Assembly: GCA_005400705.1 (NCBI GenBank)
Contig: GCA_005400705.1_4079.1
Direction: 5' to 3' (one strand)
DNA length: 64,000 nucleotides
From: Escherichia coli
GTDB taxonomy: Bacteria > Pseudomonadota > Gammaproteobacteria > Enterobacterales > Enterobacteriaceae
Position numbers and translations under genes: made by a program. Every line of letters begins with the position of its first letter. Position 1 is the first letter of the stretch. The notes under the pieces are model-generated. The model worked only from the letters and a program-made list of their open reading frames with translations, was not told the origin of the DNA and searched no databases. Of this stretch, positions 4,178-23,024 are shown one piece after another.

Positions 4178-4183
4178 TTCAAT

Positions 4184-5332: not shown

Positions 5333-5370
5333 AATTCCCTCCTTTATTCATTATATCATATTTACCCCAT
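5333..5370 (-). promoter_or_regulatory. Conserved 5' UTR/promoter of the RCC1-like gene (tataat plus SD aaggaggg)
   Basis: Minus-strand tataatgaataaaggaggg immediately upstream of ATG; same block precedes the genes ending at 2911 and 4111. Confidence 0.4.
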
Positions 5371-5375
5371 AACCC

Positions 5376-5404
5376 TTGACATCCTTTCAGTACTGGTGTA
5401 CTAT
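5376..5404 (+). promoter_or_regulatory. Sigma70-like promoter for the plus-strand small-gene array
   Basis: TTGACA (5376-5381), 17 nt spacer containing AGTACT, TACTAT (5399-5404); ATG at 5430. Confidence 0.45.
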
Positions 5405-9846: not shown

Positions 9847-10054
9847 TTCCATTACCCCTTGAGGCTCCAGCAAAAAGTTGGTTAGTACTCCATCCTAAAT
9901 CTCGATCCTAAAAATTTTGGAGTACCTATGAAATAAAAGTTGGATCTTCGAAAGTTGAAATTTACGTTGGGACGTTTATGATTTGTGGGATATAATGATG
10001 TTTGTAGTCGGGTAGTTCTCAAGAATATCAGTACTGAATGATGAAAGAAAGCTA

Positions 10055-10082
10055 TTGACTTTATGATTCAGTACTGTATAAT
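10055..10082 (+). promoter_or_regulatory. Sigma70-like promoter with no ORF downstream
   Basis: TTGACT (10055-10060), 16 nt spacer containing CAGTACTG, TATAAT (10077-10082), then gttttacat; following 150 bp non-coding and ends in a T-run near 10190. Confidence 0.45.
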
Positions 10083-10420
10083 GTTTTACATAGAGAGATG
10101 AGTTGCCGCAAACAATTCATTCACTCTACTTCCTGTCGTGAGACAGTACAGAAAGATAGTTCCTCCTATGGGTGGTACATCTTTTAGAACCTCTTTTTTC
10201 GTAATATGAACAGTACTGATATTAACAGAATGGTGTCAGTACTGATTTTAATTTAATGCATTATGCCACCAGCACAAGCTGGTGGATTCCCTCTAACAGT
10301 ATTCAGTACTACATGATGGTCTTCATCCTCCTAGGGTAACATAGTGAGGGCTATGATGGCAGTACTGAATACTCCCTTTCAAAAGATAGATCTATGGTAT
10401 AGTACTGACGGATTTTGGGC

Positions 10421-10600
10421 GTAGTTACCCTGGATGGATTTTGGACGTAGATATGTCTAGCCCTCCAGAAGTCTGGAAGTAAAGATGGCTATCCATCTAG
10501 ACGGCTAAACGGCTAGATTTCTGGATGGCTGGATGGCTAGACGTTTGGACGGCTAAACGGCTAGATGGTTACACGTCTGGAAGTATAGACGGCTAAATCA
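10421..10600. repeat. Iteron-like cluster of short direct repeats
   Basis: gacggctaaacggctagat x2, gtctggaagta x2, ggattttggRcgtag x2, ctggatgg x3, ggctag x4 within 180 bp. Confidence 0.6.
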
Positions 10601-11220
10601 AAATTTTATTTTGTTTTTTCCAATAGTTCCCCTACCGCGTGGGGATAGTTTCCCCGCAGTATCTGGAGTTAGATTTTTCTGAATCTGGAATCATTATCTT
10701 ATAAACTGGGGGCAATGTCAACCGCCTGGACGGATATTTTTAAAAATTTTTTCAGTACTGAATTTTGGGCGTAACTATGCACCCGGTGGGCTTGAGTCTT
10801 TCTCGACTTGATGGAACTATTATACAGTACTGGAAAAATAAAGCAATACCCTGGAAGCAAAAAAGTTTTAATTAATTTGCTTGCTATCCTGGGCCGGACT
10901 ATGGTACTATATTTCAGTACTGAGAAAGTGCGTTTACCTGCTAGGGTGCGGGAGTGTATCCTTTTTTTATATCTTGAATTTTGGGCGTAATTCCGCACCC
11001 TCTGGGGTTTCCGCTTTCTCGCGTCTATGTAGTAATTATACGCTTTTTCAGGATCAAGTCAATACCTAAAAACAAAATAATTGAAAATAATTTAACGCGT
11101 TTAAACGGCCCGTAAAGCCCTGGAATGATTGGAATGGTGCAAATGTATAGCTTAGGTGTATTAATGCGTTAGAATGCGTCTGAGGCCGTTTTACGGGGTA
11201 TAGGGATGATTTGGTGGATT

Positions 11221-11310
11221 GATTCAGTACTGAATGATAGTACTACTATATAGAAAGATAGTTCCCCTGAATGGTTGCAGTACTGAATGATAGTTCCCCT
11301 ATATAGAAAG
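11221..11310. repeat. Two direct repeats of about 45 bp (cagtactgaatgatag...tatatagaaag)
   Basis: Near-identical tandem copies immediately upstream of the first PeSL-type promoter. Confidence 0.5.
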
Positions 11311-11340
11311 AAAACTATTTTAAAAGTATTTGTAGAAAGT

Positions 11341-11402
11341 ACTTGCAAACTAAGTTTAACGGCGTATAATGTTTTACATCGAGAGCGGGAACACTTCCCG
11401 CT
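11341..11402 (+). promoter_or_regulatory. PeSL-type cassette: sigma70-like promoter plus 5' stem-loop
   Basis: aAGTACTTGCAaact, TATAAT at 11365-11370, gttttacatc, hairpin agcgggaa-cac-ttcccgct (11384-11402). Confidence 0.6.
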
Positions 11403-11425
11403 ACATATTACGAGAGATTAAAACG

Positions 11426-11788
11426 ATGGCGACTCAAATCACTAAAATTATTGCTAACCTGGTTAACTTTCGCGACGAGATGAAAGATCTTCCGGCAGAA
11501 ACGGTAAAAATTCACATTTCAGCTTATCGGGAACTTATTGCAATGTTACCGCTTAAGCGTGAACAATACGCCGCGACCGTGATGCTTGATGCGATGATCC
11601 ATAAGATGATCGCCAGTGATTTAACGATGGTTTATCAGTATATGGGCGAAAATTTCGCGGTGTATAGTAAACCAGTACCAGGAATGGAAAGTACAGAAGT
11701 ATTACACGGTTTAAATTTAAAACAAGATGCATGGGATAATATGCCTCGTTTCCTGGTATGGGCTGACAGTGGCAAGATTTACGAATAA
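11426..11788 (+). CDS. Hypothetical protein
   Basis: Track ORF 11369-11788 trimmed to first ATG after the hairpin (11426, MATQITK); 120 aa. Confidence 0.65.
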   Translation: MATQITKIIANLVNFRDEMKDLPAETVKIHISAYRELIAMLPLKREQYAATVMLDAMIHKMIASDLTMVYQYMGENFAVYSKPVPGMESTEVLHGLNLKQDAWDNMPRFLVWADSGKIYE

Positions 11789-11799
11789 GTTTTAGAAAG

Positions 11800-11861
11800 T
11801 ACTTGCAAACTAAGTTTAAAAGCGTATAATGTTTTACATCAGGTGGGGAATAGTTCCCCAC
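11800..11861 (+). promoter_or_regulatory. PeSL-type cassette
   Basis: agtacTTGCAAact, TATAAT 11825-11830, hairpin gtggggaa-tag-ttccccac. Confidence 0.6.
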
Positions 11862-11881
11862 TATATAAGAGGATTAAAAAA

Positions 11882-12121
11882 ATGGCTAAATCAAAAATGT
11901 TCTTAGGTCACAAAAACAAAACTCATTGGAATGTAAGCCTTTGGATTAATAACGATGAGTCATTGTACCGGTTGGCCCAGGACTTTATTAACGATAGCAC
12001 TAATCGCAATGATGCGGCCCGTCATATGATGTTATTTTTAGAACAGACTGGACAAGATAAAACACCGGACGGATTCAAATATAGCACTACTGCGATCCGT
12101 GCGGCGATGGTTGGAATGTAA
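11882..12121 (+). CDS. Hypothetical protein
   Basis: ATG 11882 (MAKSKMF) after SD aagagga; 79 aa. Confidence 0.65.
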   Translation: MAKSKMFLGHKNKTHWNVSLWINNDESLYRLAQDFINDSTNRNDAARHMMLFLEQTGQDKTPDGFKYSTTAIRAAMVGM

Positions 12122-12134
12122 TAGAATATATTTA

Positions 12135-12170
12135 AAGTACTATCGCAAAAAATGATAGTACTTTATAATA
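12135..12170 (+). promoter_or_regulatory. Promoter variant with AGTACT in spacer (degenerate -35)
   Basis: aaagtactatcgcaaaaaatgatAGTACTttataatag; homologous to the promoter at 23762-23796, which has a TTGACA -35. Confidence 0.4.
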
Positions 12171-12206
12171 GTGTTTTATTCATACACAAACGATAAGGGC
12201 AACAGC

Positions 12207-12473
12207 ATGAATATTAAGTATTTTGCGACGCGTGAACAAGCTCGGATCGCCGCACGCCAGGACGGGGCAACGTTTAAAGATATGGGCGTACAATCGGAAC
12301 GTGGTAAACGTTGGGCCATTATAAAGCGTAGTACCGCCAGATCATTACAGTACTGGTTAGCGGCGTTAAAAAGTCCTGATAGTGTATCGCGTCGAGTGGT
12401 AGAAATAAAGCTCGACCGAAAGGGCAACCGCGTGACCGTGTACCGTACTAAAAAGATAGCAGTACTTGAATAA
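12207..12473 (+). CDS. Hypothetical protein; paralog of 23839-24234
   Basis: ATG 12207 (MNIKYFATREQARIAARQDGATFKDMG...DRKGNRVTVYRTKK) matches KFYATREAARIVAREEGAAFKDMG...DRKGNSVTVFSKRR. Confidence 0.65.
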   Translation: MNIKYFATREQARIAARQDGATFKDMGVQSERGKRWAIIKRSTARSLQYWLAALKSPDSVSRRVVEIKLDRKGNRVTVYRTKKIAVLE

Positions 12474-12540
12474 AAGTACTTGCATACTATGTTTAAAGGC
12501 GTATAATGTTTTACATCGAGAGCGGGAACACTTCCCGCCT
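12472..12540 (+). promoter_or_regulatory. PeSL-type cassette
   Basis: aaagtacTTGCATact, TATAAT 12502-12507, hairpin gcgggaa-cac-ttcccgc. Confidence 0.6.
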
Positions 12541-12559
12541 ATAACCTGGAGTAATAAAA

Positions 12560-12790
12560 ATGACTAATATGTATATGACTGAAGTTAAAACTGTAAAAGA
12601 TACTACCACGAATAAAACTACTTACTTACAGCGGATCTGTGGTGTCTGGCAACGTATCAGCAAAATAAAGTACTATAAATTGACATCACATGCTAACCGT
12701 TCGGATTCATTCAGTACTGAAATAAAAGGTAATAAAGTACACCAATACGGCACTTATTATTATTATAGCCTGGATGCGATTGCAGTATAA
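12560..12790 (+). CDS. Hypothetical Thr/Tyr-rich protein
   Basis: 76 aa ORF after PeSL and SD ggag. Confidence 0.6.
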   Translation: MTNMYMTEVKTVKDTTTNKTTYLQRICGVWQRISKIKYYKLTSHANRSDSFSTEIKGNKVHQYGTYYYYSLDAIAV

Positions 12791-13034
12791 GCAGTTTACA
12801 AATCTTTACAATTGCCGGTATTGACTTATTTTGTCAGTACTGGCATAATGTATTCATTGGCAGATAAGCCGTAGCCCATAGGGTGCGGGAGTGTATCTAT
12901 AGAAAAAGTAGTTTATTACAGTTACAATTGTGCACCCGGTGGGTTAGCTGTTGTCATGGGGTATATTATACCAGTACTGGATAGTGCTGTCAATACCTTT
13001 TTACTATTCAGTACTGAAAACTATTTTTAAAAAG

Positions 13035-13066
13035 TACTTGCAAACTATGTTTAAAGGCGTATAATG
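13035..13066 (+). promoter_or_regulatory. PeSL-type promoter driving a structured leader
   Basis: aaagtacTTGCAAact, TATAAT 13060-13065. Confidence 0.55.
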
Positions 13067-13070
13067 TTTT

Positions 13071-13150
13071 ACATCAGGACGGGGAACGAAATAAGTAACT
13101 TCCCGTTAAGTAGCCCAGGAGTAAGGCACACGAAAAACTCCCCTGATAAA
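13071..13150 (+). ncRNA. Conserved structured RNA element, copy 1 (candidate cis-regulatory leader or small RNA)
   Basis: caggacggggaacgaaataagtaacttcccgttaagtagcccaggagtaaggcacacgaaaaactcccctg; identical copy at 22916-22990, diverged copy about 16030-16110; two predicted stem-loops. Confidence 0.35.
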
Positions 13151-13155
13151 ATAGT

Positions 13156-13183
13156 TTGACAAATGTTTTTAAAAGCGTATAAT
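13156..13183 (+). promoter_or_regulatory. Second sigma70-like promoter after the structured element
   Basis: TTGACA 13156-13161, 16 nt, TATAAT 13178-13183. Confidence 0.5.
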
Positions 13184-13215
13184 ACTTACATCAACTACTG
13201 AATGAGGGTTACAAA

Positions 13216-13827
13216 ATGAAAACTATCACTACTACTACTTTCGTTATGGCTTTTTCTGAATTGAACGCAGAACAACAAACGTCAGCTATCGAACTGGTTC
13301 GGGATCGGGAACGTTCAAGCGGTGATGATTTCTTTTCTGAGTCAGTGATCGAGTACTATAAAGAAACAGTACTACCAGAATATGGAATTGATGACGCTGA
13401 TTTGCAATTCAGTGGTTTTTGGTCGCAGGGTGACGGTGCATCAATCAGTACTGACCACGTTGACGCTGTGAAGTTTTTACGCAAGATTAAAGCATTAACT
13501 AAGTATCGTTCTATCCGTCACCTGCTGAATGAAGATGATTTGGCGATGAGTGTAAAGCGTTCTCACTCCCACTACTCGCATGAAAACACTGTAAGCGGGT
13601 ACATTGAATCGGGGTACACTGATTTAACCGCAAAACAAGAAACGTTAGTTAATGAGCTTGAGGAACTACTCACTGAAACTATTCGTGAATTATCCCGCAA
13701 GTTGTACCGTGATTTAGAGAATGCATATGAGGATCAATTCACTACTGAAAACATTACGGCACTGATTGAGGGTAACGAATATCAATTCAATGTTATTGAT
13801 GGCGTAGTAGAATCTATCGAATATTAA
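13216..13827 (+). CDS. Hypothetical acidic protein
   Basis: 203 aa ORF; SGFWSQGDGASIS motif; family not recognised. Confidence 0.7.
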   Translation: MKTITTTTFVMAFSELNAEQQTSAIELVRDRERSSGDDFFSESVIEYYKETVLPEYGIDDADLQFSGFWSQGDGASISTDHVDAVKFLRKIKALTKYRSIRHLLNEDDLAMSVKRSHSHYSHENTVSGYIESGYTDLTAKQETLVNELEELLTETIRELSRKLYRDLENAYEDQFTTENITALIEGNEYQFNVIDGVVESIEY

Positions 13828-13844
13828 TTCAGTACTGAATCAAT

Positions 13845-13863
13845 GGCGGGAGTGGTTCCCGCC
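13845..13863 (+). promoter_or_regulatory. 5' stem-loop without adjacent promoter
   Basis: ggcggga-gtgg-ttcccgcc then SD aggag and ATG 13884. Confidence 0.45.
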
Positions 13864-13883
13864 TATAACCAGGAGTAAGCATC

Positions 13884-14117
13884 ATGATCGAACAAATTCA
13901 AACGACCACAAGCCGGAGCGGAACGAAAGTACATTACATCGCTGATACTGATAAAGGTGTACCCTATTGTGCTGTACACGTAAATACTGACGGTGACTAT
14001 TGGTTAACTGTATACGGGCGTTACTCGTTTGCTTTTAGTGCACATTGTAAGATCCTGGAAGTAGTGAAGCCTACCGGTAAGAATATCACGCCGGGAAAAT
14101 GTTTTACTAAGCACTAA
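13884..14117 (+). CDS. Hypothetical protein; paralog of 15039-15275
   Basis: 77 aa; shared GVPYCAVHVNT(D/E)G(D/N)YW(L/F)TVYG...PTGKNIT. Confidence 0.7.
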   Translation: MIEQIQTTTSRSGTKVHYIADTDKGVPYCAVHVNTDGDYWLTVYGRYSFAFSAHCKILEVVKPTGKNITPGKCFTKH

Positions 14118-14118
14118 A

Positions 14119-14185
14119 AAGTACTTGCATACTAAGTTTAAAAGCGTATAATACTTTATATCGAGGCGGGGGAATGGTTCCCGCC
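14119..14185 (+). promoter_or_regulatory. PeSL-type cassette
   Basis: aaagtacTTGCATact, TATAAT 14147-14152, hairpin ggcggggga-atgg-ttcccgcc. Confidence 0.6.
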
Positions 14186-14203
14186 TTTACTGAGGATTAT
14201 CTA

Positions 14204-14491
14204 ATGAGCAAAGTAATTAACTATACAGTACTAAGCAAGTCATTATCTATTAGCCAGTGCACCGATGGTTTTTGGCTGTACGATGAAACGCGTGGCATGA
14301 ATTTAGCTATGCGGGAGAAAACTGCTGAGGCGGCGTATTTACAAGCCCTGGAATACTACCAGGAACGTTTAAAGGAAGTAGAAAACAATTATCAAAATTT
14401 AAAAGAGAAAGTAGATAATTTCGTTTGTCAATTCGTTGACGATGACGAGGAAGACGGGCACTACTGCAACCGTTGCGGATCTTACAATTAA
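14204..14491 (+). CDS. Hypothetical protein with C-terminal Cys pair (HYCNRCGSYN)
   Basis: Track ORF 14174-14491 trimmed to ATG 14204 (MSKVINYTV); 95 aa. Confidence 0.6.
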   Translation: MSKVINYTVLSKSLSISQCTDGFWLYDETRGMNLAMREKTAEAAYLQALEYYQERLKEVENNYQNLKEKVDNFVCQFVDDDEEDGHYCNRCGSYN

Positions 14492-14554
14492 GTACTTGCA
14501 ATTAGTTTTCAGTACTGTATAATGGTTTACATCAAAGGGAGAAATGGTTCTCCC
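14490..14554 (+). promoter_or_regulatory. PeSL-type cassette
   Basis: agtacTTGCAAttagttttcAGTACTgTATAAT, hairpin gggagaa-atgg-ttctccc. Confidence 0.6.
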
Positions 14555-14573
14555 TGGTAATGAGGAAAATAAA

Positions 14574-14795
14574 ATGGCTAATATCACTACTCTTTCCCAA
14601 CTGGAAGCACTGGTTAAATCTATGCGGGAACATGCCGACAAAATCGGCGTACAAGATCCAGCCGTTTGCTTCTGCGACGAATTGAATGATGATACCCTGG
14701 TAATAGCAGAAGTCCAGGACGTTTCTAACTATTCCTCGCGTTACACTGGCGGCGTAGCAAATAAAGGTGACTTCTGTTTATACCTTACAAAATAA
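14574..14795 (+). CDS. Hypothetical protein
   Basis: ATG 14574 (MANITTLSQ) after SD gaggaaa; 73 aa. Confidence 0.65.
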   Translation: MANITTLSQLEALVKSMREHADKIGVQDPAVCFCDELNDDTLVIAEVQDVSNYSSRYTGGVANKGDFCLYLTK

Positions 14796-14796
14796 C

Positions 14797-14830
14797 AACG
14801 CGGGGAGATAATAACTCCCCGTTACTTTTT
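14797..14830 (+). terminator. Rho-independent terminator
   Basis: cggggag-ataataa-ctccccg followed by ttacttttt. Confidence 0.55.
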
Positions 14831-14959
14831 CAGTACTGAATCATTTAATAGACGGATCTCGGCACCCGGTGGGTTAGTGACTGTTTCGTCTTGATGTAGT
14901 AATTATGCCAGTACTGGATGCACTTGTCAACAATTATTTTTCAAATACTTTTTATTAAA

Positions 14960-15018
14960 ATACTTGCAATTAGTTTTTAAACGCGTATAATGTTTTGCAT
15001 AGGGGGAGCGGTTCCCCT
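14960..15018 (+). promoter_or_regulatory. PeSL-type cassette
   Basis: aatacTTGCAAttag, TATAAT 14986-14991, hairpin ggggagcggttcccc. Confidence 0.55.
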
Positions 15019-15038
15019 GGTAACTAAGGAATAATAAA

Positions 15039-15275
15039 ATGCTTGAACAAATCAAATCAACGTCTTCGAATGTAACGGGAACGGTAGCACACTTTACTAG
15101 TGATGAATCGCGGGGCGTTCCCTATTGTGCTGTACATGTAAACACTGAGGGTAACTACTGGTTTACGGTTTACGGTTCATATTCATTTGGACGGCCAGGG
15201 CATCAAAAAATTCTGGATAAAGTACAGCCAACGGGTAAAAATATCACTGCTGAAATGTTTTATAAAAAATCATAA
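15039..15275 (+). CDS. Hypothetical protein; paralog of 13884-14117
   Basis: 78 aa ORF. Confidence 0.7.
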   Translation: MLEQIKSTSSNVTGTVAHFTSDESRGVPYCAVHVNTEGNYWFTVYGSYSFGRPGHQKILDKVQPTGKNITAEMFYKKS

Positions 15276-15340
15276 AGTACTTGCAATTAGTTTTTAGTAC
15301 TGTATAATATTTTACATCGCAAGGGGGAGCGGTTCCCCCT
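15276..15340 (+). promoter_or_regulatory. PeSL-type cassette
   Basis: aagtacTTGCAAttagtttttAGTACTgTATAAT, hairpin gggggagcggttccccc. Confidence 0.6.
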
Positions 15341-15359
15341 GGTAACTAAGGATAATCAA

Positions 15360-15659
15360 ATGAAAATTGCAATCATCGCCCTGGCTTTATCTGTTTCCTC
15401 TTTCGCTGTTAATGCGTCATTAGATGTAAGTAGTGAAAAATTCATTCAGTGCACTGTTGCAATGACCGATGAAAGTACTGGCGAGATTGTTTTAAAGGAT
15501 TTAGAGATCCAGCCCGAAGCATTTAAAAACGGGCCGTTCCATGAAGAAGACGAAAAAGGTAGCACGACAATTTATTACGATGCAAGTACTAAACGCGGTT
15601 CGGTCACTGTTATGGATACTGAGAAAGTAACTCATACTGGCGTTATTAATTGCCGTTGA
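15360..15659 (+). CDS. Small secreted or periplasmic protein (predicted signal peptide)
   Basis: 99 aa; N-terminus MKIAIIALALSVSSFAVNA is signal-peptide-like. Confidence 0.65.
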   Translation: MKIAIIALALSVSSFAVNASLDVSSEKFIQCTVAMTDESTGEIVLKDLEIQPEAFKNGPFHEEDEKGSTTIYYDASTKRGSVTVMDTEKVTHTGVINCR

Positions 15660-15680
15660 TAGATACTACGGGGTAACATC

Positions 15681-15911
15681 ATGACTAAGCGAATTGTTTT
15701 ACTTAACGAAAGCAGTACTACACAACTACTTAACGCCGTGCATTATGATATTGAAACGAGCGTTAATCTTATCAGTACTGTAGTACTGTTGGACACTGGA
15801 AAGGTCGCCAATGATAAAGCGATTGCAGGTATACTAACGGATCTTGAGCCTGGTAGCAGTGCACCAATAACGTTAAATGGTAAAGTGTTTAATATTTTAC
15901 TCACTGATTAA
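15681..15911 (+). CDS. Hypothetical protein
   Basis: 76 aa ORF after short gap, followed by a terminator. Confidence 0.6.
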   Translation: MTKRIVLLNESSTTQLLNAVHYDIETSVNLISTVVLLDTGKVANDKAIAGILTDLEPGSSAPITLNGKVFNILLTD

Positions 15912-15916
15912 GTACA

Positions 15917-15945
15917 TAGCCCACCTGGTGGGCTTTTTTGTTTTT
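15917..15945 (+). terminator. Rho-independent terminator
   Basis: agcccacc-t-ggtgggct then ttttttgtttttg. Confidence 0.6.
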
Positions 15946-15992
15946 GTAGTATCGTAGTACTGAGATACTTTGAAAATAGTTTTAAAAAATAG

Positions 15993-16020
15993 TTGACATT
16001 ACCGCAGAAAAGCGTAGAAT
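15993..16020 (+). promoter_or_regulatory. Sigma70-like promoter
   Basis: TTGACA 15993-15998, 16 nt, TAGAAT 16015-16020. Confidence 0.5.
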
Positions 16021-16029
16021 GTATTACAT

Positions 16030-16110
16030 CAAGACGGGGAGCACTAAGTAGACCGCCAGTAAGTCGAACGAAAAACTGGACACGTCGAGAAAACTTTGAT
16101 ACACTAATAA
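16030..16110 (+). ncRNA. Diverged third copy of the structured leader element
   Basis: agacggggagcactaagtagaccgccagtaagtcgaacgaaaaactggacacg shares gacgggga, agtaag and acgaaaaact with the element at 13071-13150. Confidence 0.25.
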
Positions 16111-16143
16111 ACGTAAACTAAACTTTAATTGAGGATTTATAAA

Positions 16144-16626
16144 ATGGCTAATGTAAAATCATTCATCAAAGCACTGGTAGCAAATGAAACTAACGTCGCG
16201 GCAGAGATCCTGGCTGATCTGGATAACGATACCATGAAAGCGGTACGCAATAATTTTAACATCGCTTATAGTACTGCGAAAGAACTACAAGCAAATAAAG
16301 CGGCAGAAATTGAAGCGGCAAAGGCGGCCCGTGAAGCAGAACTACAAGCAACAATTGAAAGTATCCAGGCGGCAGTAGTTGGATTGGATCTGGAAGTAGT
16401 TACAGAGATGGCACAAAAAGCCCTGGCGGTTAAGTATGGGGAAGATAAGCCGGAATCTAAGCCTAAAAAATGGATTCAAAAACGTGTAGCGGTAGTACTG
16501 GACAACGGGGAAGAATATCTGATTCCGGTGCGTGGTAACTGCATTGCGGTAGTACTGGATGCGATTAACTCCAGTGGTATGACTCGCGAGGAATGGATCG
16601 AAGCTCATCGCAAAGTTGAAGCATAA
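16144..16626 (+). CDS. Hypothetical protein with N-terminal coiled-coil
   Basis: Track ORF trimmed to ATG 16144 (MANVKSF); Ala/Glu-rich heptad-like stretch AAEIEAAKAAREAELQATIESIQAA; C-terminal internal repeat VAVVLDN/IAVVLDA. Confidence 0.65.
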   Translation: MANVKSFIKALVANETNVAAEILADLDNDTMKAVRNNFNIAYSTAKELQANKAAEIEAAKAAREAELQATIESIQAAVVGLDLEVVTEMAQKALAVKYGEDKPESKPKKWIQKRVAVVLDNGEEYLIPVRGNCIAVVLDAINSSGMTREEWIEAHRKVEA

Positions 16627-16645
16627 CAATTAAAGTACTGAATCA

Positions 16646-16678
16646 CTAGCCCACCTTAAACGGTGGGCTTTTTTGTGT
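16646..16678 (+). terminator. Rho-independent terminator
   Basis: agcccacc-ttaaac-ggtgggct then ttttttgtgttt. Confidence 0.65.
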
Positions 16679-16824
16679 TTATCGTTTACCAGGCCACCAG
16701 CACCGCCTAGAAACGATTCTAACGCATTAAACTGATTATCTGATGCATTGCCCTAGCTGGTGGCGTTAAGGCTGTAAGAACGCGATTGAGAGCGTTTAAA
16801 GTATTTTGCAAAAAGTAATAAAAA

Positions 16825-16885
16825 GTACTTGCACGATTAAGAGATTAGCGTATAATGTTTTACATCGAGAGGGGGAAACGGTTCT
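16825..16885 (+). promoter_or_regulatory. PeSL-type cassette (imperfect hairpin)
   Basis: aaaagtacTTGCACgat, TATAAT 16851-16856, GC-rich gggggaaacggttctcc. Confidence 0.5.
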
Positions 16886-16911
16886 CCTTCCAAATCAAAG
16901 GAATTAAAACA

Positions 16912-17139
16912 ATGGCTATCGTAATCACTCGCGTAACTGGTACTACTGGCAATTCTTCTACTGTTGCTGTAATTACTAATAAGAAAGGTGCGGAATTGCA
17001 TTTTGCAATGGATAAATGGGCCGTTAATGAGTTCGGTCAGTGGGCAAGTGTAGCATACATTGAAACCTATCAAGTGCCGTCGATTAGTTTAACTGATTTG
17101 GGCGTTGAGCGTATCCTTTGCCTGGATGAATTAAATTAA
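16912..17139 (+). CDS. Hypothetical protein
   Basis: Track ORF 16855-17139 trimmed to ATG 16912 (MAIVITRV); 75 aa. Confidence 0.65.
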   Translation: MAIVITRVTGTTGNSSTVAVITNKKGAELHFAMDKWAVNEFGQWASVAYIETYQVPSISLTDLGVERILCLDELN

Positions 17140-17142
17140 AAA

Positions 17143-17206
17143 AGTACTTGCAAAGTAAATCAGATAAAGTATAATACATTACATCAAGGGGAGAAATGGT
17201 TCTCCC
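17143..17206 (+). promoter_or_regulatory. PeSL-type cassette
   Basis: aaagtacTTGCAAagt, TATAAT 17170-17175, hairpin gggagaa-atgg-ttctccc. Confidence 0.6.
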
Positions 17207-17225
17207 TGATAATGAGGAAACTAAT

Positions 17226-17369
17226 ATGAAAACTTGTCAATGTGGTAAAAAATCTATTACTGGTTTAAAGCGGGGCGTTGCACTTTGCCAGTACCATTAT
17301 AATTTACAAGTATGGGGTAAAGAATGGGCCGACCAGGTGGAAGCAGCAAAGAAAGCAAAAAGTAAGTAA
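17226..17369 (+). CDS. Small Cys-rich protein (possible zinc ribbon)
   Basis: 47 aa hand-translated (below track cutoff): MKTCQCGKKSITGLKRGVALCQYHYNLQVWGKEWADQVEAAKKAKSK; PeSL and SD upstream. Confidence 0.5.
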   Translation: MKTCQCGKKSITGLKRGVALCQYHYNLQVWGKEWADQVEAAKKAKSK

Positions 17370-17384
17370 AAATATTATCACAGT

Positions 17385-17420
17385 ACTATTGACATAGTTT
17401 GATAGTACTGGCATAATAGA
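17385..17420 (+). promoter_or_regulatory. Sigma70-like promoter with AGTACT flanking -35 and in spacer
   Basis: cAGTACTatTGACAtagtttgatAGTACTggCATAAT (TTGACA 17389-17394, CATAAT 17412-17417). Confidence 0.5.
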
Positions 17421-17450
17421 TTTTATCAAGACAACTAAGAGGAAATTAAA

Positions 17451-17795
17451 ATGGCTAATATCAACACTATCGCAAAACAAAATATCAACCTGTCTTCTGT
17501 TGAAGTTGTACATATTGCCGCTCGGCGTTGGTTCCAGGCTTCATATGGTAACACTTATTTCTCTTTAAGTGTAGACGTAGAAATTGATGGTAATTTTATT
17601 GAAGTAGTAAACGTGCCGTTCCAATATGGATACGGGGATCACTTTGACACTGTAGCAATGGAAGAATTTAGCAAGGTTATTAATATGGAAGATAAGGAGT
17701 TTACACGCGGATCGTACCTTTCACGTTTTTGCCGTGATAATAATATCACTGTTTACAGTTCGGTAACTGATGTTAAACGCAAAAAAGATCTTTAA
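17451..17795 (+). CDS. Hypothetical protein; paralog of 23420-23743
   Basis: 114 aa; shared C-terminus (VTDVKRKKDL vs YYDVKRKKDM) and internal GYG motifs. Confidence 0.7.
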   Translation: MANINTIAKQNINLSSVEVVHIAARRWFQASYGNTYFSLSVDVEIDGNFIEVVNVPFQYGYGDHFDTVAMEEFSKVINMEDKEFTRGSYLSRFCRDNNITVYSSVTDVKRKKDL

Positions 17796-17875
17796 TTCGC
17801 TTTACTTTATGCAGATACTTTGATATAGTGTCTGCATAGGGGAAAGAAATTAAATTAACTTAAGAGGAACGTATA

Positions 17876-18145
17876 ATGAAAAATATCAGTACTTTAATCG
17901 ATGCAGGTACACATGTTCGGCGGTCAATGGTTGCAACCAGTACTACAAAACAAGTAGCGAGCGGTTATCTTGTATTTGTGCACGATGGTAAACTCCTGGA
18001 ACGTTCAATCAATTTTGATGTTAAAAACAATTGCCGTTTTATTATCTTTCGCCGTGAACAATATAAGATCGACATTCCAGCGAAGCCCATTAGCGGTGCG
18101 TACAACGTGCAATCATTGTTTGAGCGTCAACCATACACCTATTAA
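17876..18145 (+). CDS. Hypothetical protein
   Basis: 89 aa ORF after SD aagagga. Confidence 0.6.
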   Translation: MKNISTLIDAGTHVRRSMVATSTTKQVASGYLVFVHDGKLLERSINFDVKNNCRFIIFRREQYKIDIPAKPISGAYNVQSLFERQPYTY

Positions 18146-18196
18146 TCAAAACATCGTTAGCGGTTGATTTAGGCCGCTTATATTGAGGATTATACC

Positions 18197-18469
18197 ATGA
18201 ACGTTAATCAAGTACTGAATGAGATCGAAAGCATCATTAAACCGATGAAGCGTACTGATGCTATGTTAACACCGGAAGAATGCCGCCTATATGAGCGTTA
18301 TAGCGTCGAACAAGTCCAGGCAATGGCTATGGCTACCACAGCCGTTAAACCGCCTGAGAATGCGTTACAGGACGTTACAGGGGATTATATCATCAATCCA
18401 GTACTAGGGAAGATGGCTGCAATCACCGAAGATCAACAAGACTACTTAAGCCAGTACTTAAAAGGTTAA
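18197..18469 (+). CDS. Hypothetical protein
   Basis: 90 aa ORF after SD tgagga. Confidence 0.6.
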   Translation: MNVNQVLNEIESIIKPMKRTDAMLTPEECRLYERYSVEQVQAMAMATTAVKPPENALQDVTGDYIINPVLGKMAAITEDQQDYLSQYLKG

Positions 18470-18474
18470 TTAAT

Positions 18475-18684
18475 ATGCTTACTGTACAGGATAAGATCGA
18501 CATCTTAAAGGTTAATATGTATGTGATTGATGCCGTACCTGGTAAAGTATTTGCATACGATGATAGTACTGTAAGCGATTTCTACTATAGCCAGGACGTG
18601 GGGGATCTTTCTGTACAGTCGGTTATTGAAAACGTAGTTAATGCAGCGTATGAGCATTTACTTTCAAATAGTACTTGCAATTAG
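18475..18684 (+). CDS. Hypothetical protein
   Basis: 69 aa ORF. Confidence 0.55.
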   Translation: MLTVQDKIDILKVNMYVIDAVPGKVFAYDDSTVSDFYYSQDVGDLSVQSVIENVVNAAYEHLLSNSTCN

Positions 18685-18733
18685 TTTTTAAACGCGTATA
18701 ATGTTTTACATGAAGGGGAGAAATGATTCTCCC
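18670..18733 (+). promoter_or_regulatory. PeSL-type cassette
   Basis: agtacTTGCAAttag, TATAAT 18697-18702, hairpin ggggagaa-atga-ttctcccc. Confidence 0.6.
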
Positions 18734-18753
18734 CACTAATTAAGGAATATGAA

Positions 18754-18900
18754 ATGAAAGCATCAAAAAAGAGTAATACCAAGAAAGCATGTTCACCTTT
18801 CGCTGGGGTATTCCCTTTACGTTTCGTTGATGAAGTGGTTTCCTACCCGCCGGGCCTTACTCCTGAGATGGTAGAAAGTTTGCGTAAATCTAAAAAATAG
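18754..18900 (+). CDS. Small basic protein
   Basis: 48 aa hand-translated: MKASKKSNTKKACSPFAGVFPLRFVDEVVSYPPGLTPEMVESLRKSKK; PeSL and SD aaggaa upstream. Confidence 0.5.
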   Translation: MKASKKSNTKKACSPFAGVFPLRFVDEVVSYPPGLTPEMVESLRKSKK

Positions 18901-18963
18901 TACTTGCAATTAGTTTTCAGTACTGTATAATGTTTTACATGAAGGGGAGAAATGATTCTCCCC
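18899..18963 (+). promoter_or_regulatory. PeSL-type cassette
   Basis: tacTTGCAAttagttttcAGTACTgTATAAT, hairpin ggggagaa-atga-ttctcccc. Confidence 0.6.
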
Positions 18964-18981
18964 AATAACAGGAGAAACAAA

Positions 18982-19134
18982 ATGAAACAATACAACGCTC
19001 GGTTTGATGTTACTATCGGTAACGGCAAAGGTCAATTCTCTTTCAGTACTCGCAAAAGTTATACAGAAAACTTCCTGCGTAATTGTGCACTGACCGCCGC
19101 TCAAATTAAACATTACTTTCAGGCTAAAAAATGA
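18982..19134 (+). CDS. Small protein
   Basis: ATG 18982 (MKQYNARFD) after SD caggag; 50 aa. Confidence 0.55.
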   Translation: MKQYNARFDVTIGNGKGQFSFSTRKSYTENFLRNCALTAAQIKHYFQAKK

Positions 19135-19220
19135 AATCATTAGCTTACTATAGTTCGGCCCTGGTCGGTACATTGATCGCGGCATTGTTAGTAACCTATC
19201 TATTCTTTATGGTGATTTAA
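19131..19220 (+). CDS. Small hydrophobic (single transmembrane) peptide
   Basis: 29 aa MKSLAYYSSALVGTLIAALLVTYLFFMVI; ATG overlaps previous stop (ATGA). Confidence 0.4.
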   Translation: MKSLAYYSSALVGTLIAALLVTYLFFMVI

Positions 19221-19364
19221 ATGAATCCAACAGGTTTAAATTATAAAAGTTGTTCGGCGTTTACGAAAGCAAATAAAGCGAATGCACGTAAAGCGAAAGT
19301 ACAGGAATACATCAAGCAAGGCATGACGCGAAAGGCGGCGATTCTAAAAGCTAAAAATAAATGA
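19221..19364 (+). CDS. Small basic peptide
   Basis: 47 aa MNPTGLNYKSCSAFTKANKANARKAKVQEYIKQGMTRKAAILKAKNK; ATG adjacent to previous stop. Confidence 0.4.
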   Translation: MNPTGLNYKSCSAFTKANKANARKAKVQEYIKQGMTRKAAILKAKNK

Positions 19365-19373
19365 AAAAAGTGG

Positions 19374-19401
19374 TTGACTCCGGTCAGCCATTTTGCTATT
19401 A
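19374..19401 (+). promoter_or_regulatory. Promoter inside the repeated 100 bp element (copy 1)
   Basis: TTGACT 19374-19379, 16 nt, TATTAT 19396-19401; followed by agcccacagggtgcataagtgtatc. Confidence 0.45.
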
Positions 19402-19489
19402 TATATTCATTGAGAGATAGCTCACTAGCCCACAGGGTGCATAAGTGTATCTATTATATAAGTATTGAGTACTGAAAACTATTTTTAAA

Positions 19490-19554
19490 AAGTACTTGCA
19501 AACTATCTCAATTGGCGTATAATGTTTTACATCGCAAGGGGAAACGGTTTCCCC
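19490..19554 (+). promoter_or_regulatory. PeSL-type cassette
   Basis: aaagtacTTGCAAact, TATAAT 19518-19523, hairpin ggggaaac-g-gtttcccc. Confidence 0.6.
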
Positions 19555-19574
19555 TGGTAATAAGGAAACGAATC

Positions 19575-19916
19575 ATGACTATCTCAATTGCTCAATCTAA
19601 CTTTGAAAACGAAATCATCGCCCAGGCACTGCGTTTAAATGATGGTCGGGCCGAAATTAATTACGGTTTCAATTCAGGCGGTTGCGAAAAATATCAGTAC
19701 TTTGTAACGGCTGATGGCGGTGTCCTGGGGATCAATACAGTTATTGTAAACATTCAGAAAATTAATTTCAATGATCCAGAAGATAGCCAGTTTTACATCA
19801 CGGGCGTGAACGTGAACTATGAGGATGATTATCTAACTGATGATCACACTGGCGAGAAGTTAGAAAGTGCATACGGTGAAGATGATTATCAGTCCGGTCC
19901 AGAAGATTTTGAATAA
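19575..19916 (+). CDS. Hypothetical protein
   Basis: Track ORF 19512-19916 trimmed to ATG 19575 (MTISIAQ); 113 aa. Confidence 0.65.
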   Translation: MTISIAQSNFENEIIAQALRLNDGRAEINYGFNSGGCEKYQYFVTADGGVLGINTVIVNIQKINFNDPEDSQFYITGVNVNYEDDYLTDDHTGEKLESAYGEDDYQSGPEDFE

Positions 19917-19927
19917 TATTAAAAAAT

Positions 19928-19990
19928 AGTTTGACAATAGATTATAGTACTGTATAATAAGTTACATCAAGGGGAGAAATGATTCTCCCC
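19928..19990 (+). promoter_or_regulatory. PeSL-type cassette with TTGACA -35
   Basis: tagTTTGACAatagattatAGTACTgTATAAT, hairpin ggggagaa-atga-ttctcccc. Confidence 0.6.
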
Positions 19991-20010
19991 ACTAACAAAG
20001 AGAAAACAAA

Positions 20011-20223
20011 ATGGCTAATATCTGCACTGTACTGAAAAATGCAAAACAAGTTTTATTTTCTGATCATGAAAATTTCAACAAGGATATTACGGGCGTTCGG
20101 AATATCAAAGATGTAAAAAGTGTTATGGGTATCTATTGCAATATGAAACGTGTTGGTACGTTCGGCGACAAAGTACTATACCAGGCAGGGGATTATAACT
20201 TTACATTAACCATTATCAATTAA
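20011..20223 (+). CDS. Hypothetical protein
   Basis: 70 aa ORF (MANICTVLKN). Confidence 0.65.
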   Translation: MANICTVLKNAKQVLFSDHENFNKDITGVRNIKDVKSVMGIYCNMKRVGTFGDKVLYQAGDYNFTLTIIN

Positions 20224-20237
20224 AATATATTACCAGT

Positions 20238-20272
20238 ACTATTAACAATGATTGATAGTACTGGCATAATAA
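20238..20272 (+). promoter_or_regulatory. Promoter variant
   Basis: ccAGTACTaTTAACAatgattgatAGTACTggCATAAT. Confidence 0.4.
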
Positions 20273-20314
20273 CTTTTATCAACAGTAGTTAACTTAACAA
20301 AAGAGAGAAACAAA

Positions 20315-20458
20315 ATGATCGCACTAGATTCATTCATCGACGCAGTACTGGCAAAAACTGGCGAGGATCTGACCGCAGAACAATACGCGATGATCGAACA
20401 ATGTCAGCAAAACGGTAAATCGGTGAAAGATACTGTTAAGATTATCCGCAAGATGTAA
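20315..20458 (+). CDS. Small acidic protein
   Basis: 47 aa hand-translated MIALDSFIDAVLAKTGEDLTAEQYAMIEQCQQNGKSVKDTVKIIRKM; SD aagagag. Confidence 0.45.
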   Translation: MIALDSFIDAVLAKTGEDLTAEQYAMIEQCQQNGKSVKDTVKIIRKM

Positions 20459-20461
20459 GAT

Positions 20462-20494
20462 TATAGCCCACTGGTTAACGCTGGTGGGCTATAA
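20462..20494 (+). other. Long hairpin (10 bp stem) without a T-run
   Basis: tatagcccac-tggttaacgctg-gtgggctata; contains GCTGGTGG. Confidence 0.4.
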
Positions 20495-20563
20495 TTCATT
20501 ACCCTATACAATGCCAGTACTCAACCGTTTATCTCGTTAGAATGCGTTACAGGACGTTTACCA

Positions 20564-20761
20564 ATGATTAGCATGAAATCAGTACAAAAACAAATAGAAA
20601 CATTATCAAAAATTAAACGTAAACAGTACTCGTTAGAATATACAATCAATGGTAACTATCATCTAATGAAAGAGAATAATTTTATCGTCATTGATGAATC
20701 ATTGCAAGTTATTAGTATAGTACTGAAAGCATTAATCAATGACAGAAAAAAATTAAAATAA
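20564..20761 (+). CDS. Hypothetical protein
   Basis: 65 aa ORF. Confidence 0.5.
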   Translation: MISMKSVQKQIETLSKIKRKQYSLEYTINGNYHLMKENNFIVIDESLQVISIVLKALINDRKKLK

Positions 20762-20763
20762 TC

Positions 20764-20796
20764 TATTGACAATATCCTCCAGTACTGGCATAATAC
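20764..20796 (+). promoter_or_regulatory. Sigma70-like promoter
   Basis: TTGACA 20766-20771, 17 nt spacer with ccAGTACTgg, CATAAT 20789-20794; followed by about 290 bp of ORF-free leader. Confidence 0.5.
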
Positions 20797-20859
20797 TTAC
20801 ATCAAGACGAGAACGTCACCAACCCATAGGGTGCACAAATGTAACTATATAATATCGAT

Positions 20860-20950
20860 CAATAAATGATCAAAAAAGTACTGGATCAATTTAGCATAAG
20901 GCGTATAATTCTGATCAATTCTTGATCAAAGGCAATATACGCAGTTGAAT
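20860..20950. repeat. GATC / tGATCAa cluster
   Basis: Five GATC sites within about 85 bp (cgatcaataaatgatcaa...ggatcaat...ctgatcaattcttgatcaa). Confidence 0.55.
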
Positions 20951-21090
20951 TTATATAGACAGTACAAAGGCGTTACTATCCGTGGTAATGCTGGTGGATA
21001 TGTAGTATCATATGGTTTGAATAAGATAAACACTAGTAGTATTATTGTAGCATTACAGTACTATAGTATTTTTATAATGAGGTTAAAATA

Positions 21091-21348
21091 ATGGCAGTAG
21101 GATACGCGAAAGACGGGGCCGAACAAGACGAGATTCATGCAGTGATTCAGGCCGCCGTTAACCACGCTAGAAAGCAAATTAACGCACAAAGAGAATCACT
21201 GGTACATTGCCTCGACTGCGGCGATAAAATTCCTGAGAATCGACGCCAGGCCGTTATAGGGTGCATGTATTGTATTACTTGCCAGGAGGATCATGATAGT
21301 ACTTTTAAAAGAGATCCGCGTAATTGTTGGCATAGATCTATGAGATAA
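21091..21348 (+). CDS. TraR/DksA-family C4 zinc-finger protein
   Basis: 85 aa; CLDCGDKIPENRRQAVIGCMYCITC fits CxxCG-x2-IP-x2-R...CxxC of the TraR/DksA zinc finger. Confidence 0.65.
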   Translation: MAVGYAKDGAEQDEIHAVIQAAVNHARKQINAQRESLVHCLDCGDKIPENRRQAVIGCMYCITCQEDHDSTFKRDPRNCWHRSMR

Positions 21349-21352
21349 AAAG

Positions 21353-21386
21353 TAATTGACAGTACTGAAAGATAGTGTATAATGTT
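21353..21386 (+). promoter_or_regulatory. Sigma70-like promoter
   Basis: aaTTGACAgtactgaaagatagtgTATAATgttttatatc. Confidence 0.5.
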
Positions 21387-21412
21387 TTATATCTTAACTG
21401 AGGATAGAAATC

Positions 21413-21769: not shown

Positions 21770-21830
21770 TACTTGCATTTAGTTTTCAGTACTGTTATAG
21801 TACTTGCATCAAGGGGAAACATCTTCCCCT
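21768..21830 (+). promoter_or_regulatory. PeSL-type cassette with weak -10
   Basis: tagtacTTGCATttagttttcAGTACTgttatag, hairpin ggggaaac-atc-ttcccc. Confidence 0.45.
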
Positions 21831-21847
21831 ACTAAGAGGAAATAAAA

Positions 21848-22036: not shown

Positions 22037-22039
22037 AAA

Positions 22040-22104: not shown

Positions 22105-22122
22105 AGTACTGAGGAAAGAAAA

Positions 22123-22874: not shown

Positions 22875-22906
22875 GTACTTGCATTGTACTTAGAATCAAG
22901 TATAAT
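22875..22906 (+). promoter_or_regulatory. PeSL-type promoter driving structured leader (copy 2)
   Basis: aaagtacTTGCATtgtacttagaatcaagTATAAT. Confidence 0.55.
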
Positions 22907-22915
22907 GTTTTACAT

Positions 22916-22990
22916 CAGGACGGGGAACGAAATAAGTAACTTCCCGTTAAGTAGCCCAGGAGTAAGGCACACGAAAAACTCCCCTGATAA
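22916..22990 (+). ncRNA. Conserved structured RNA element, copy 2
   Basis: Identical over about 90 bp to 13071-13160. Confidence 0.35.
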
Positions 22991-22996: not shown

Positions 22997-23024
22997 TTGA
23001 CAATAGAAAGTAAACGAGTATAAT
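22997..23024 (+). promoter_or_regulatory. Second promoter after the structured element
   Basis: TTGACA 22997-23002, 16 nt, TATAAT 23019-23024. Confidence 0.5.

Follow-up and report, generated by a model that had tools for sequence, protein, structure and literature searches.

A conserved H-type pseudoknot between tandem early promoters of jumbo coliphages and T7-like phages

The DNA analysed here, a 64,000-nucleotide (nt) stretch of an Escherichia coli assembly (GCA_005400705.1, contig GCA_005400705.1_4079.1) that is referred to below as the window, is the early region of an Asteriusvirus-like jumbo coliphage, full of PeSL promoter cassettes; around the element described here it is ~94-95% identical to jumbo coliphages of the PBECO4/121Q/phAPEC6 type (genus Asteriusvirus). 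Three times in this region a short element lies between tandem promoters, and the core of this element is an H-type pseudoknot. The whole is very probably a self-contained 5′ RNA domain of ~75 nt, made up of a closing helix (P0), a hairpin (HP1, in the two copies A and B) and the knot, which the host sigma-70 polymerase would transcribe from the upstream member of the tandem early promoters, and which belongs to an unannotated RNA family that includes the A1-A2 spacer of phage T7.

The repeat and its crossing helices

A sequence-only reading of the window had placed two identical copies at 13071-13160 and 22916-23000. Their identity was borne out by exact string matching, the 87-nt string then quoted having exactly two occurrences (13075-13161 and 22916-23002), but the first start had been set ~4 nt too early, and the full exact repeat is longer, 104 nt (13059-13162 = 22900-23003), with the upstream promoter (P1) contributing its −10 box at one end and the downstream promoter (P2) its −35 box at the other. 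In copies A and B, the A/T tract upstream of P1 and its −35 box are identical, the 16-nt P1 spacer is wholly different, the stretch from the P1 −10 box to the P2 −35 box is again identical, the 16-nt P2 spacer is again wholly different, and the P2 −10 box is identical together with ~12 further nt, after which unrelated genes follow. A simple recent duplication would have carried both spacers along and does not explain the pair; since both promoter spacers and the genes differ, a single segmental duplication including the flanks, an alternative raised in the sequence-only reading, is ruled out, and its claim that the flanking genes are unrelated holds. The loop of the hairpin is identical in A and B, though it is variable among relatives and unlike between the two copies of 121Q, which indicates that, in addition to selection, the copies were recently homogenised in this lineage.

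A third, diverged copy (C), suspected earlier at about 16030-16110, was located at 16028-16100. R1, a covariance model constructed from related sequences, found sites in the window at 13107-13144, 16045-16082 and 22948-22985 only, with 53.7 bits for copy C, 52.3 bits for copies A and B and E values of ~1e-16 (2e-16 for copy A), the next-best match over the 64 kb and both strands scoring 10.5 bits; ACGAAAAACT has three occurrences against 0.16 expected. The covariance search that had been proposed as a check thus recovered all three sites with this model and gave no Rfam family, there being no gathering-level match in the window to Rfam 15, among whose families are preQ1, SAM-II, guanidine, ToxI and ribozymes.

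Along the transcribed strand, the core consists of UAAGUA, GNC, the 5′ arm of stem S2, UAA, GN′C, NNACGAAAAA and the 3′ arm of S2. The arms follow one another in the order S1a, S2a, S1b, S2b, with a first loop of 1-2 nt, a UAA or AUAA junction and an A-rich third loop of 10 nt, and the near-invariant stretches (UAAGUA, UAA and ACGAAAAA) are single-stranded. All three window copies have the sequence UAAGUAG-N-C ... UAAG-N′-C-NN-ACGAA(A) as well as both crossing helices, S1 (GNC/GN′C, with complementary N and N′) and S2 (4-5 bp).

The fold was evaluated on 31 distinct cores (an earlier set held 19), in which 96.4% of cells pair, compared to 15-39% in slid controls, and none of 500 shuffles came up to the real cores in pairing or in covariation score. 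Since the search pattern prescribed the invariant G and C of S1, these positions are uninformative; it left the middle pair of S1 and every pair of S2 open. This middle pair is AU in 21 cores, CG in 5, UA in 4 and GC in 1, and is never broken; the stem appears as GAC..GUC, GCC..GGC, GUC..GAC and, in one metagenomic T7-like contig, GGC..GCC, and in UE-S1 and 121Q the change from GCC to GUC is coupled with a change from GGC to GAC. Pairs of S2 switch between CG and GC, between UA, AU and UG, and between GC, GU and AU, giving the arms GCCUG/CAGGC, GCCUG/CAGGU, ACCUG/CAGGU, GCUUG/CAAGC, GCCUG/CGGGC, CCAG/CUGG, GGAG/CUCC and GGUG/CACC. The G-U pairs fit the plus strand only, i.e., the direction of transcription from P1. 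The compensatory changes in two crossing stems, together with the strand-specific G-U pairs, demonstrate that selection has acted at the level of the RNA. As controls, promoter-less matches to the pattern in metagenomes were S1-complementary in 1 of 11 cases and those to a relaxed pattern in 27 of 89, the relaxed DNA pattern giving mostly chance matches in IMG/VR and serving as a covariation null only. Members found by BLAST or by the model, outside the pattern selection, retain the core with few loop changes, and RNAalifold applied to the T7-like phages independently recovered S2 and the upstream hairpin HP1, which itself covaries there (CCGG/CCGG, CCAG/CUGG, CCAC/GUGG and CCCG/CGGG).

These results bear on the suggestion that the element is a feature of the DNA only, in which part of the UP element of the second promoter and the initial transcribed sequence of the first would have been kept uniform by gene conversion among PeSL cassettes or left behind as the scar of a deleted gene. 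Such a reading would accommodate the A-tracts found at UP-element distances from the downstream −35 box (in the T7-likes and in copies A and B), the homogenised hairpin loop of A and B, and the fact that PeSL cassettes are known recombination substrates (PMC2839356, PMC4122927). It is nevertheless highly improbable and has been largely refuted by the covariation, since a double-stranded DNA site does not explain compensatory changes in crossing stems or G-U pairs confined to one strand. Furthermore, the next −35 box follows the knot at variable distances, ~8 to 42 nt in the pattern scan and ~50 nt in Munch and Hallingskeid, and one member, contig L028, has no second promoter; a UP element alone was rejected on the same two grounds, the variable distance (~8 to ~50 nt) and the member without a downstream promoter. 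The earlier statement that the element holds no open reading frame (ORF) needed amendment, as there is a mechanical ORF of 31 amino acids at 13064-13159. A small protein was rejected and the ORF is considered non-coding because it opens with an ATG inside the −10 box, ahead of the presumed start of transcription, and because relatives have indels of 2 and 4 nt in it; the nucleotides downstream of the indels are conserved. The repeat, the promoters and, by covariation, the fold can thus be regarded as established.

For the start of the P1 transcript, we infer A13073 in copy A, A22914 in copy B and A16028 in copy C by analogy with the layout of T7 A1 (the −10 box, 7 nt, then ATCGAGAGGG, with +1 at the A of AUCGAGAGGG). 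Each copy would thus begin at the +1 of a sigma-70 early promoter, and it ends just ahead of a second promoter. In copy A, on the plus strand like the other two, the domain comprises 75 nt from the presumed +1 (13073..13147). The 5′ arm of P0 (AUCAGG, +1 to +6, 13073-13078) is followed by HP1 (ACGGGGA / UUCCCGU, 13079-13106), both from folding, and by the linker UAAGUA (13107-13112), with which the pseudoknot core as delimited by R1 (13107..13144) begins. Then come S1a (GCC, 13113-13115), loop L1 (CA), S2a (GGAG, 13118-13121), loop L2 (UAA), S1b (GGC, 13125-13127), loop L3 (ACACGAAAAA, 13128-13137) and S2b (CUCC, 13138-13141), S1 being defined by covariation and S2 by folding and covariation. 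Directly after S2b lies the 3′ arm of P0 (CCUGAU, 13142-13147, from folding), so that the closing helix of copies A and B encloses HP1, the linker and the knot. Copy B repeats this domain at an offset of +9841 (22914..22988, with the R1 core at 22948-22985). In copy C (16028..16100, from R1 and folding), there is no HP1 and the equivalent closing helix is in two parts, AUCAA (16028-16032) with UUGAU (16096-16100) and GACG (16033-16036) with CGUC (16083-16086); within it are the linker UAAGUA (16045-16050), S1a (GAC, 16051-16053), S2a (CCAG, 16056-16059), S1b (GUC, 16063-16065), L3 (GAACGAAAAA, 16066-16075) and S2b (CUGG, 16076-16079). The same closed architecture with other closing sequences is predicted by single-sequence folds for outra, muut, A73, 121Q, EJP2, Hallingskeid, Munch and a related metagenomic jumbo phage. 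The two stem-loops of the sequence-only reading were therefore half of the picture: single-sequence folding does give two hairpins, but the second of them is, from the comparative data, one stem of the pseudoknot, and a closing helix has to be added.

The promoters assumed on either side of the element were confirmed by a promoter scan, for P1 and P2 of copies A and C and for P2 of copy B. P1 of copy A is of the PeSL type (TTGCAA-16-TATAAT, 13038..13065, + strand), belongs to a 24-copy repeat family (D1/D2) and has an A/T-rich region upstream from ~13010, and P1 of copy B (TTGCAT-16-TATAAT, 22879..22906, +; repeat family D1, 22868-22926) has a spacer unrelated to that of copy A. The corresponding P2 promoters (13156..13183 and 22997..23024, both +) match the consensus at 12 of 12 positions, being TTGACA-16-TATAAT in copy A. 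In copy C, an intrinsic terminator (15918-15934) lies just ahead of P1 (TTGACA-16-TAGAAT, 15993..16020, +), and P2 is weak (TTGATA-17-TAAACT, 16096..16124, +). On the minus strand, a perfect consensus extended −10 promoter (TTGACA-17-TG-TATAAT, 12993-12965) lies just upstream of P1 of copy A and is directed away from it.

Distribution among virulent phages

The family is far wider than the window. Copies of the A/B type recur at 87-100% identity in 45 phage records, among them Justusliebigvirus (outra, muut) and Vequintavirinae (A73 and others), which belong to rather different families. With copy C as the query, short matches were obtained to jumbo phages of Erwinia, Salmonella and Klebsiella and to the left end of T7-like Yersinia phages, and the matched loci share a core of TAAGTAG-N-C, a short arm, TAAG-N′-C, NN-ACGAAAAAC and the complementary arm, which in phiA1122 and T7 is situated between A1 and A2, two promoters for the host polymerase. 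In IMG/VR, a pattern scan gave 32 loci, nearly all of them in T7-like genomes of ~38-40 kb, and BLAST with the T7 hairpin-plus-core gave 486 phage records with one site per genome (Escherichia 225, Klebsiella 83, Salmonella 37, Yersinia 20 and others by host); the core is also found in other jumbo, rV5-like and phi92-like phages. In almost all GenBank records listed the T7-type site is unannotated, a few bearing a coding sequence for a hypothetical protein over it. A pattern scan of 185,579 bacterial species genomes gave two matches only, one on a contig of a metagenome-assembled genome that is probably phage DNA, having a T7-like promoter context, and one in Pseudomonas that fails the covariation test and is due to chance; there was no match in 5,426 E. 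coli genomes. The distribution, like the fold, is a matter of observation.

In T7 and other Autographiviridae, the A1-A2 spacer (T7 nt ~533-590) has the core UAAGUAGAC-A-GCCUG-AUAAGUC-GCACGAAAAA-CAGGU, with the same two crossing stems as the window copies. As in the window, the element has a hairpin directly upstream, belongs to the leader transcribed from the first early promoter for host polymerase, and is followed by a further strong promoter. The T7-likes differ in that the knot lies ~55 nt from +1 behind two hairpins and lacks a 5′-3′ closing helix, in that S2 is GCCUG/CAGGY rather than GGAG/CUCC, in having one copy per genome, and in having a boxA and the RNase III site R0.3 downstream. 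They have one to four of these promoters, and the knot occurs only after the first. The spacer between A2 and A3 (CTTAAGCGCACCACGGCACATAAGGTGAAACAAACGGTTGACA), in T7 and in the T7-like sequence L009 (~265-320), keeps TAAG and the A-rich run and has lost the S2 pairing, and looks like a decayed paralogue of the A1-A2 knot. A resemblance was also noted between the initial transcribed sequence of the PeSL promoters in the window (ACATCGAGAGGGGGA..., 24 promoter copies, 10044-28817) and that of T7 A1 (CATCGAGAGGGACACGG; sequences L009/L041), which are closely alike; promoter and start region, besides the pseudoknot, seem to be common to these unrelated phage groups.

The setting of the element in the window is that of the PeSL cassettes. 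Between ~10 and 29 kb, there are at least 24 copies of a promoter cassette (repeat families D1-D5 and D17) consisting of GTACTTGCA or TTGACA, 16-17 nt and TATAAT, followed as a rule by a GC hairpin, a ribosome site and a small gene. In end-complete relatives, the corresponding region is part of the direct terminal repeat and lies a few kb away from the end of the genome. The same architecture is known as PeSL from T4-type phages (Arbiol 2010, PMC2839356; Comeau 2014, PMC4122927), where a near-consensus sigma-70 promoter is followed by a GC stem-loop, like P1 and HP1 in copies A and B (copy C being without HP1), and where the cassettes are likewise intergenic among small ORFans, with flanking cassettes shuffled between phages. 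In contrast to the element, an ordinary PeSL cassette has a single promoter, and its hairpin leads straight to the ribosome site and gene; here, the pseudoknot, the closing helix and a second complete promoter are interposed, and the knot also occurs in podophages, which are without the PeSL system.

In Asteriusvirus, Justusliebigvirus and Vequintavirinae taken together, at least five different genes are found behind the module. Those in the window are the genes at 13216-13827 (phrog_5162) behind copy A, at 23058-23333 (phrog_14947) behind copy B and at 16144-16626 (phrog_27871) behind copy C, and for the downstream genes Pfam and PHROGs returned only “unknown function”. The 23058 cassette is also found behind the module in muut (93.6% over 515 nt), in outra the module stands ahead of a homologue of the 11.8-kb cassette of the window, and in A73 ahead of a homologue of the 16.85-kb cassette. 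The early cassettes of outra, muut and A73 (sequences L001, L002 and L003) are homologous to those of the window and differ in their order; with these phages the window shares cassettes at 11435-12121, 16850-17795, 19923-20313 and 22900-23410, at 69-94% DNA identity. Such shuffling of shared cassettes indicates that virulent coliphage families exchange them. Promoter, knot, promoter and gene of copy C form a unit that is found in synteny in Munch and Hallingskeid, both jumbo phages, and that therefore looks vertically inherited in the jumbo lineage, the A/B type looking like the travelling one. A module that is mobile or ancient is thus supported, and with it the earlier suggestion of a selected or mobile RNA module, which agrees with the covariation in crossing stems, the varied downstream genes and the core held in common with T7-like podophages. 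Among 8 Asteriusvirus genomes, the whole regulatory block is less variable than the adjacent coding sequence.

A further resemblance to T7 concerns the gene behind copy C. Its leader (16118-16146, aaactaaaCTTTAAttgaggatttataaaATG), and especially the Munch counterpart (TTAAACTTTAAGAGGAAATATACAATG; sequence L011, ~535-560), resemble the translational enhancer and ribosome site of T7 gene 10 (TTTAACTTTAAGAAGGAGATATACATATG).

Possible roles of the RNA

Action of the RNA in its own right would agree with its near-invariant loops across unrelated phages, its paired termini and its independence of the downstream gene, as well as with its position ahead of a second promoter, its occurrence after the first promoter only in the T7-likes and its confinement to virulent enterobacterial phages. 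The domain lies upstream of a second promoter, with a perfect consensus in copies A and B, and so many mRNAs of the downstream gene would lack it. In T7, moreover, the leader is cut from the mRNA by RNase III at R0.3, which points in the same direction. The element may therefore be read, tentatively and with well under even confidence, as an autonomous immediate-early RNA that binds a conserved host factor. The upstream promoter and the domain would together form a small “gene” of their own for this RNA, independent of the gene behind. The pseudoknot would show its invariant loop nucleotides to a conserved enterobacterial factor (candidates being RNA polymerase, ribosomal protein S1, Hfq and RNase E), and would titrate or recruit this factor in the takeover of the host. 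The paired termini would keep the domain stable once it was detached from the remaining transcript, by RNase III at R0.3 in T7 and presumably in the A/U-rich spacer in the myoviruses. Like the start site, we infer the transcript, its stability, its partner and its effect. The same fold in phages that share almost nothing else points to what may be a common host target in the first minute of infection, and the pattern of occurrence points to regulatory RNA modules that would be traded between virulent phage families together with their promoters.

The main rival of this autonomous RNA is a cis-acting modifier of the host RNA polymerase carried on the nascent transcript, in the manner of HK022 put or of nut/boxB. 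The domain would fold as it leaves its polymerase and stay bound to it, helping it to resist pausing, termination, promoter-bound polymerases and the PeSL hairpins ahead; only polymerases from the upstream promoter would be modified, and these, trailing the ones started downstream, could push a convoy. The HK022 putL and putR RNAs, which act without a phage protein, are likewise phage RNAs of ~70-75 nt near the start of an early host-polymerase transcript with two helical arms (PMC9378689). The window element resembles putL in position and size (it starts at +1 to +3 of the early transcript, is ~75 nt long and has two helical arms), and its independence of the downstream gene would also suit a modifier of polymerase. 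There is, however, no homology, as R1 run with its filters off over the whole HK022 genome gave a best match of 8.5 bits and none at PL or PR, and put consists of two stem-loops with a triplex, whereas the window element is an H-type pseudoknot. Furthermore, put belongs to a temperate phage and is present in every PL transcript, while most early transcripts here would bypass the element, which is upstream of the other tandem promoters. A second line in favor of such a modifier comes from boxA (CGCUCUUUA), which lies downstream of the knot in about half of the T7-like leaders, 17 nt away in L028, and recalls the combination of a structured element and a boxA in lambda nut and rrn boxB-boxA. In these leaders, however, boxA is downstream of all the promoters, and around the three window copies no boxA (YGCUCUUUA) was found even with 2 mismatches allowed, its matches in the window being at chance level; in addition, the loop, at 16 to 17 nt, is unlike the boxB pentaloop, nothing implies an N-like protein, and a consistent need for read-through is not evident from the layout of terminators behind the three copies. 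All in all, action in cis on the polymerase is regarded as unlikely. As a separate observation, a hairpin with an ACGAAAC loop (GGUCUAACGAAACCUGACC) lies just ahead of the T7 boxA.

The paired 5′ terminus could alternatively be a passive armour or insulator, i.e., an elaborate PeSL stem-loop without a specific partner that, with its terminal nucleotides buried and a compact knot set at the 5′ end, would protect transcripts of the upstream promoter from 5′-end-dependent decay (RppH, RNase E scanning) and may also keep the leader from mispairing. This would be in line with P0 pairing from nucleotide +1 in all myovirus-type copies, with the hairpin of T7 A1 RNA beginning at +2, and with the simple GC hairpin that ordinary PeSL cassettes of the window bear at the same place (families D2, D3 and D17). 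A stability element would have no need, though, of near-invariant loops across podophages and myophages, and the T7 leader, being cut off at R0.3, would offer no protection to the coding RNA, nor do transcripts from the stronger downstream promoter contain the domain; armour is accordingly held to be improbable. A different comparison is offered by the leader of the T4 gene 32 mRNA, which likewise has a 5′-terminal H-type pseudoknot with A/U-rich sequence behind it, and where the knot nucleates the binding of the protein encoded downstream. Here, by contrast, the downstream gene varies by copy (at least 5 genes, all of unknown function), and the T7 leader is cleaved off.

Covarying stems with invariant loop and junction nucleotides are also typical of aptamers, and an H-type pseudoknot of ~36 nt with an A-rich third loop is similar in size and topology to the smallest pseudoknot riboswitches, of the preQ1-I or SAM-II class. 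A riboswitch-like aptamer for a small molecule or ion nevertheless seems a very remote prospect. Searched against Rfam at E up to 10, the loci of the window, the T7-likes, Munch and Hallingskeid gave no match to the pseudoknot core, the sole overlapping row being a chance match to Methylobacterium-1 (13.7 bits, E 5.8). No expression platform is present either (neither a terminator nor a sequestered ribosome site before an ORF), the next feature being a promoter, and the downstream genes are mutually unrelated.

Two kinds of mimicry were tried and rejected. For a mimic of 16S rRNA (nt ~870-912), five members aligned with the rrnH operon no better than shuffles did. For a ToxI-like or antitoxin mimic, the ToxI-like phage records listed and the counts by organism included neither T7-likes nor Asteriusvirus, and the motif has no bacterial counterpart. 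The latter search did turn up ≥90% identity to the Pectobacterium ToxI antitoxin repeat in ~200 phage records (163 from Klebsiella phages, the others from Salmonella, Escherichia and Pectobacterium phages), which suggests that antitoxin-RNA mimicry is widespread; these sequences are unrelated to the present element.

Several observations weigh against an autonomous, discrete RNA. The folding energy of the domain is unremarkable (z = −1.39), the domain is without a terminator of its own, a discrete small RNA thus being an assumption, and in the 8 Asteriusvirus genomes the element is no more conserved than the flanking promoters. In the T7-likes, the extra copies of promoter plus leader seem to be knot-less, as in the A2-A3 spacer, which disfavours a sponge driven purely by dosage. 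Action in trans and action in cis on the polymerase would, moreover, appear inseparable by sequence analysis.

No description of the element was found in the searchable literature (older subscription literature lay outside the search), where two papers print the T7 sequence as part of constructs. It is a well-supported new RNA family of the “phage early-leader element” kind, with an archetype hidden in T7. Few phages have been studied as intensively as T7, whose A1-A2-A3 region is a standard tool, and yet the best-conserved non-coding feature of this region is unannotated in almost all of the GenBank records listed and has no Rfam family. A broader proposal, which is possible but doubtful, is that of a new class of phage regulatory RNA, overlooked for decades in the T7 A1 leader: a protein-independent immediate-early RNA, exchanged horizontally among T7-like, RaK2/121Q-like jumbo, rV5-like and phi92-like virulent enterobacterial phages, that would aid the takeover by binding a single conserved machine of the host, for which RNA polymerase is the most attractive candidate and a component of the ribosome or of RNA decay another. 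If the partner were RNA polymerase, this would be a second, structurally unrelated case of put-like control of transcription by RNA; a decoy function would make the element a new RNA for host takeover or anti-defence. In practice, expression and in vitro transcription templates based on T7 A1, refactored T7 genomes and therapeutic jumbo phages unknowingly carry or delete the element.

Other repeats of the window

Another repeated regulatory module (families D14, D16 and D20) is present at 19331-19410, 22717-22836, 25718-25837 and 28163-28282, and also at 20812-20847. It consists of a 12-bp hairpin that holds a −35 box (AAAGGGATTGACTCCGGTCAGTCCCTTT), followed by TATTAT and by a conserved AGCCCACNGGGTGCATAAATGTATCTA block. 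One of these modules (22760-22788) forms a third tandem promoter ~118 nt upstream of P1 of copy B, with a spacing like that of T7 A1/A2/A3. At the left edge of the early cassettes, at 10435-10595, lies an array of a degenerate 8-nt unit (GGATGGCT / AGACGGCT / AAACGGCT; TRF periods of 16, 24, 32 and 48), which could represent iterons or a protein-binding array.

Repeated coding families were also observed. Five copies ~1.2 kb apart occupy 405-5399 (D9 and D12; RCC1-like minus-strand genes in 121Q), and within 43410-57991 there are arrays at 44.5-47.8 kb (D6, D10 and D18). Finally, a 38-nt motif, GAAGA..TTCCAG..AGTACTGT, occurs 12 times (D8).

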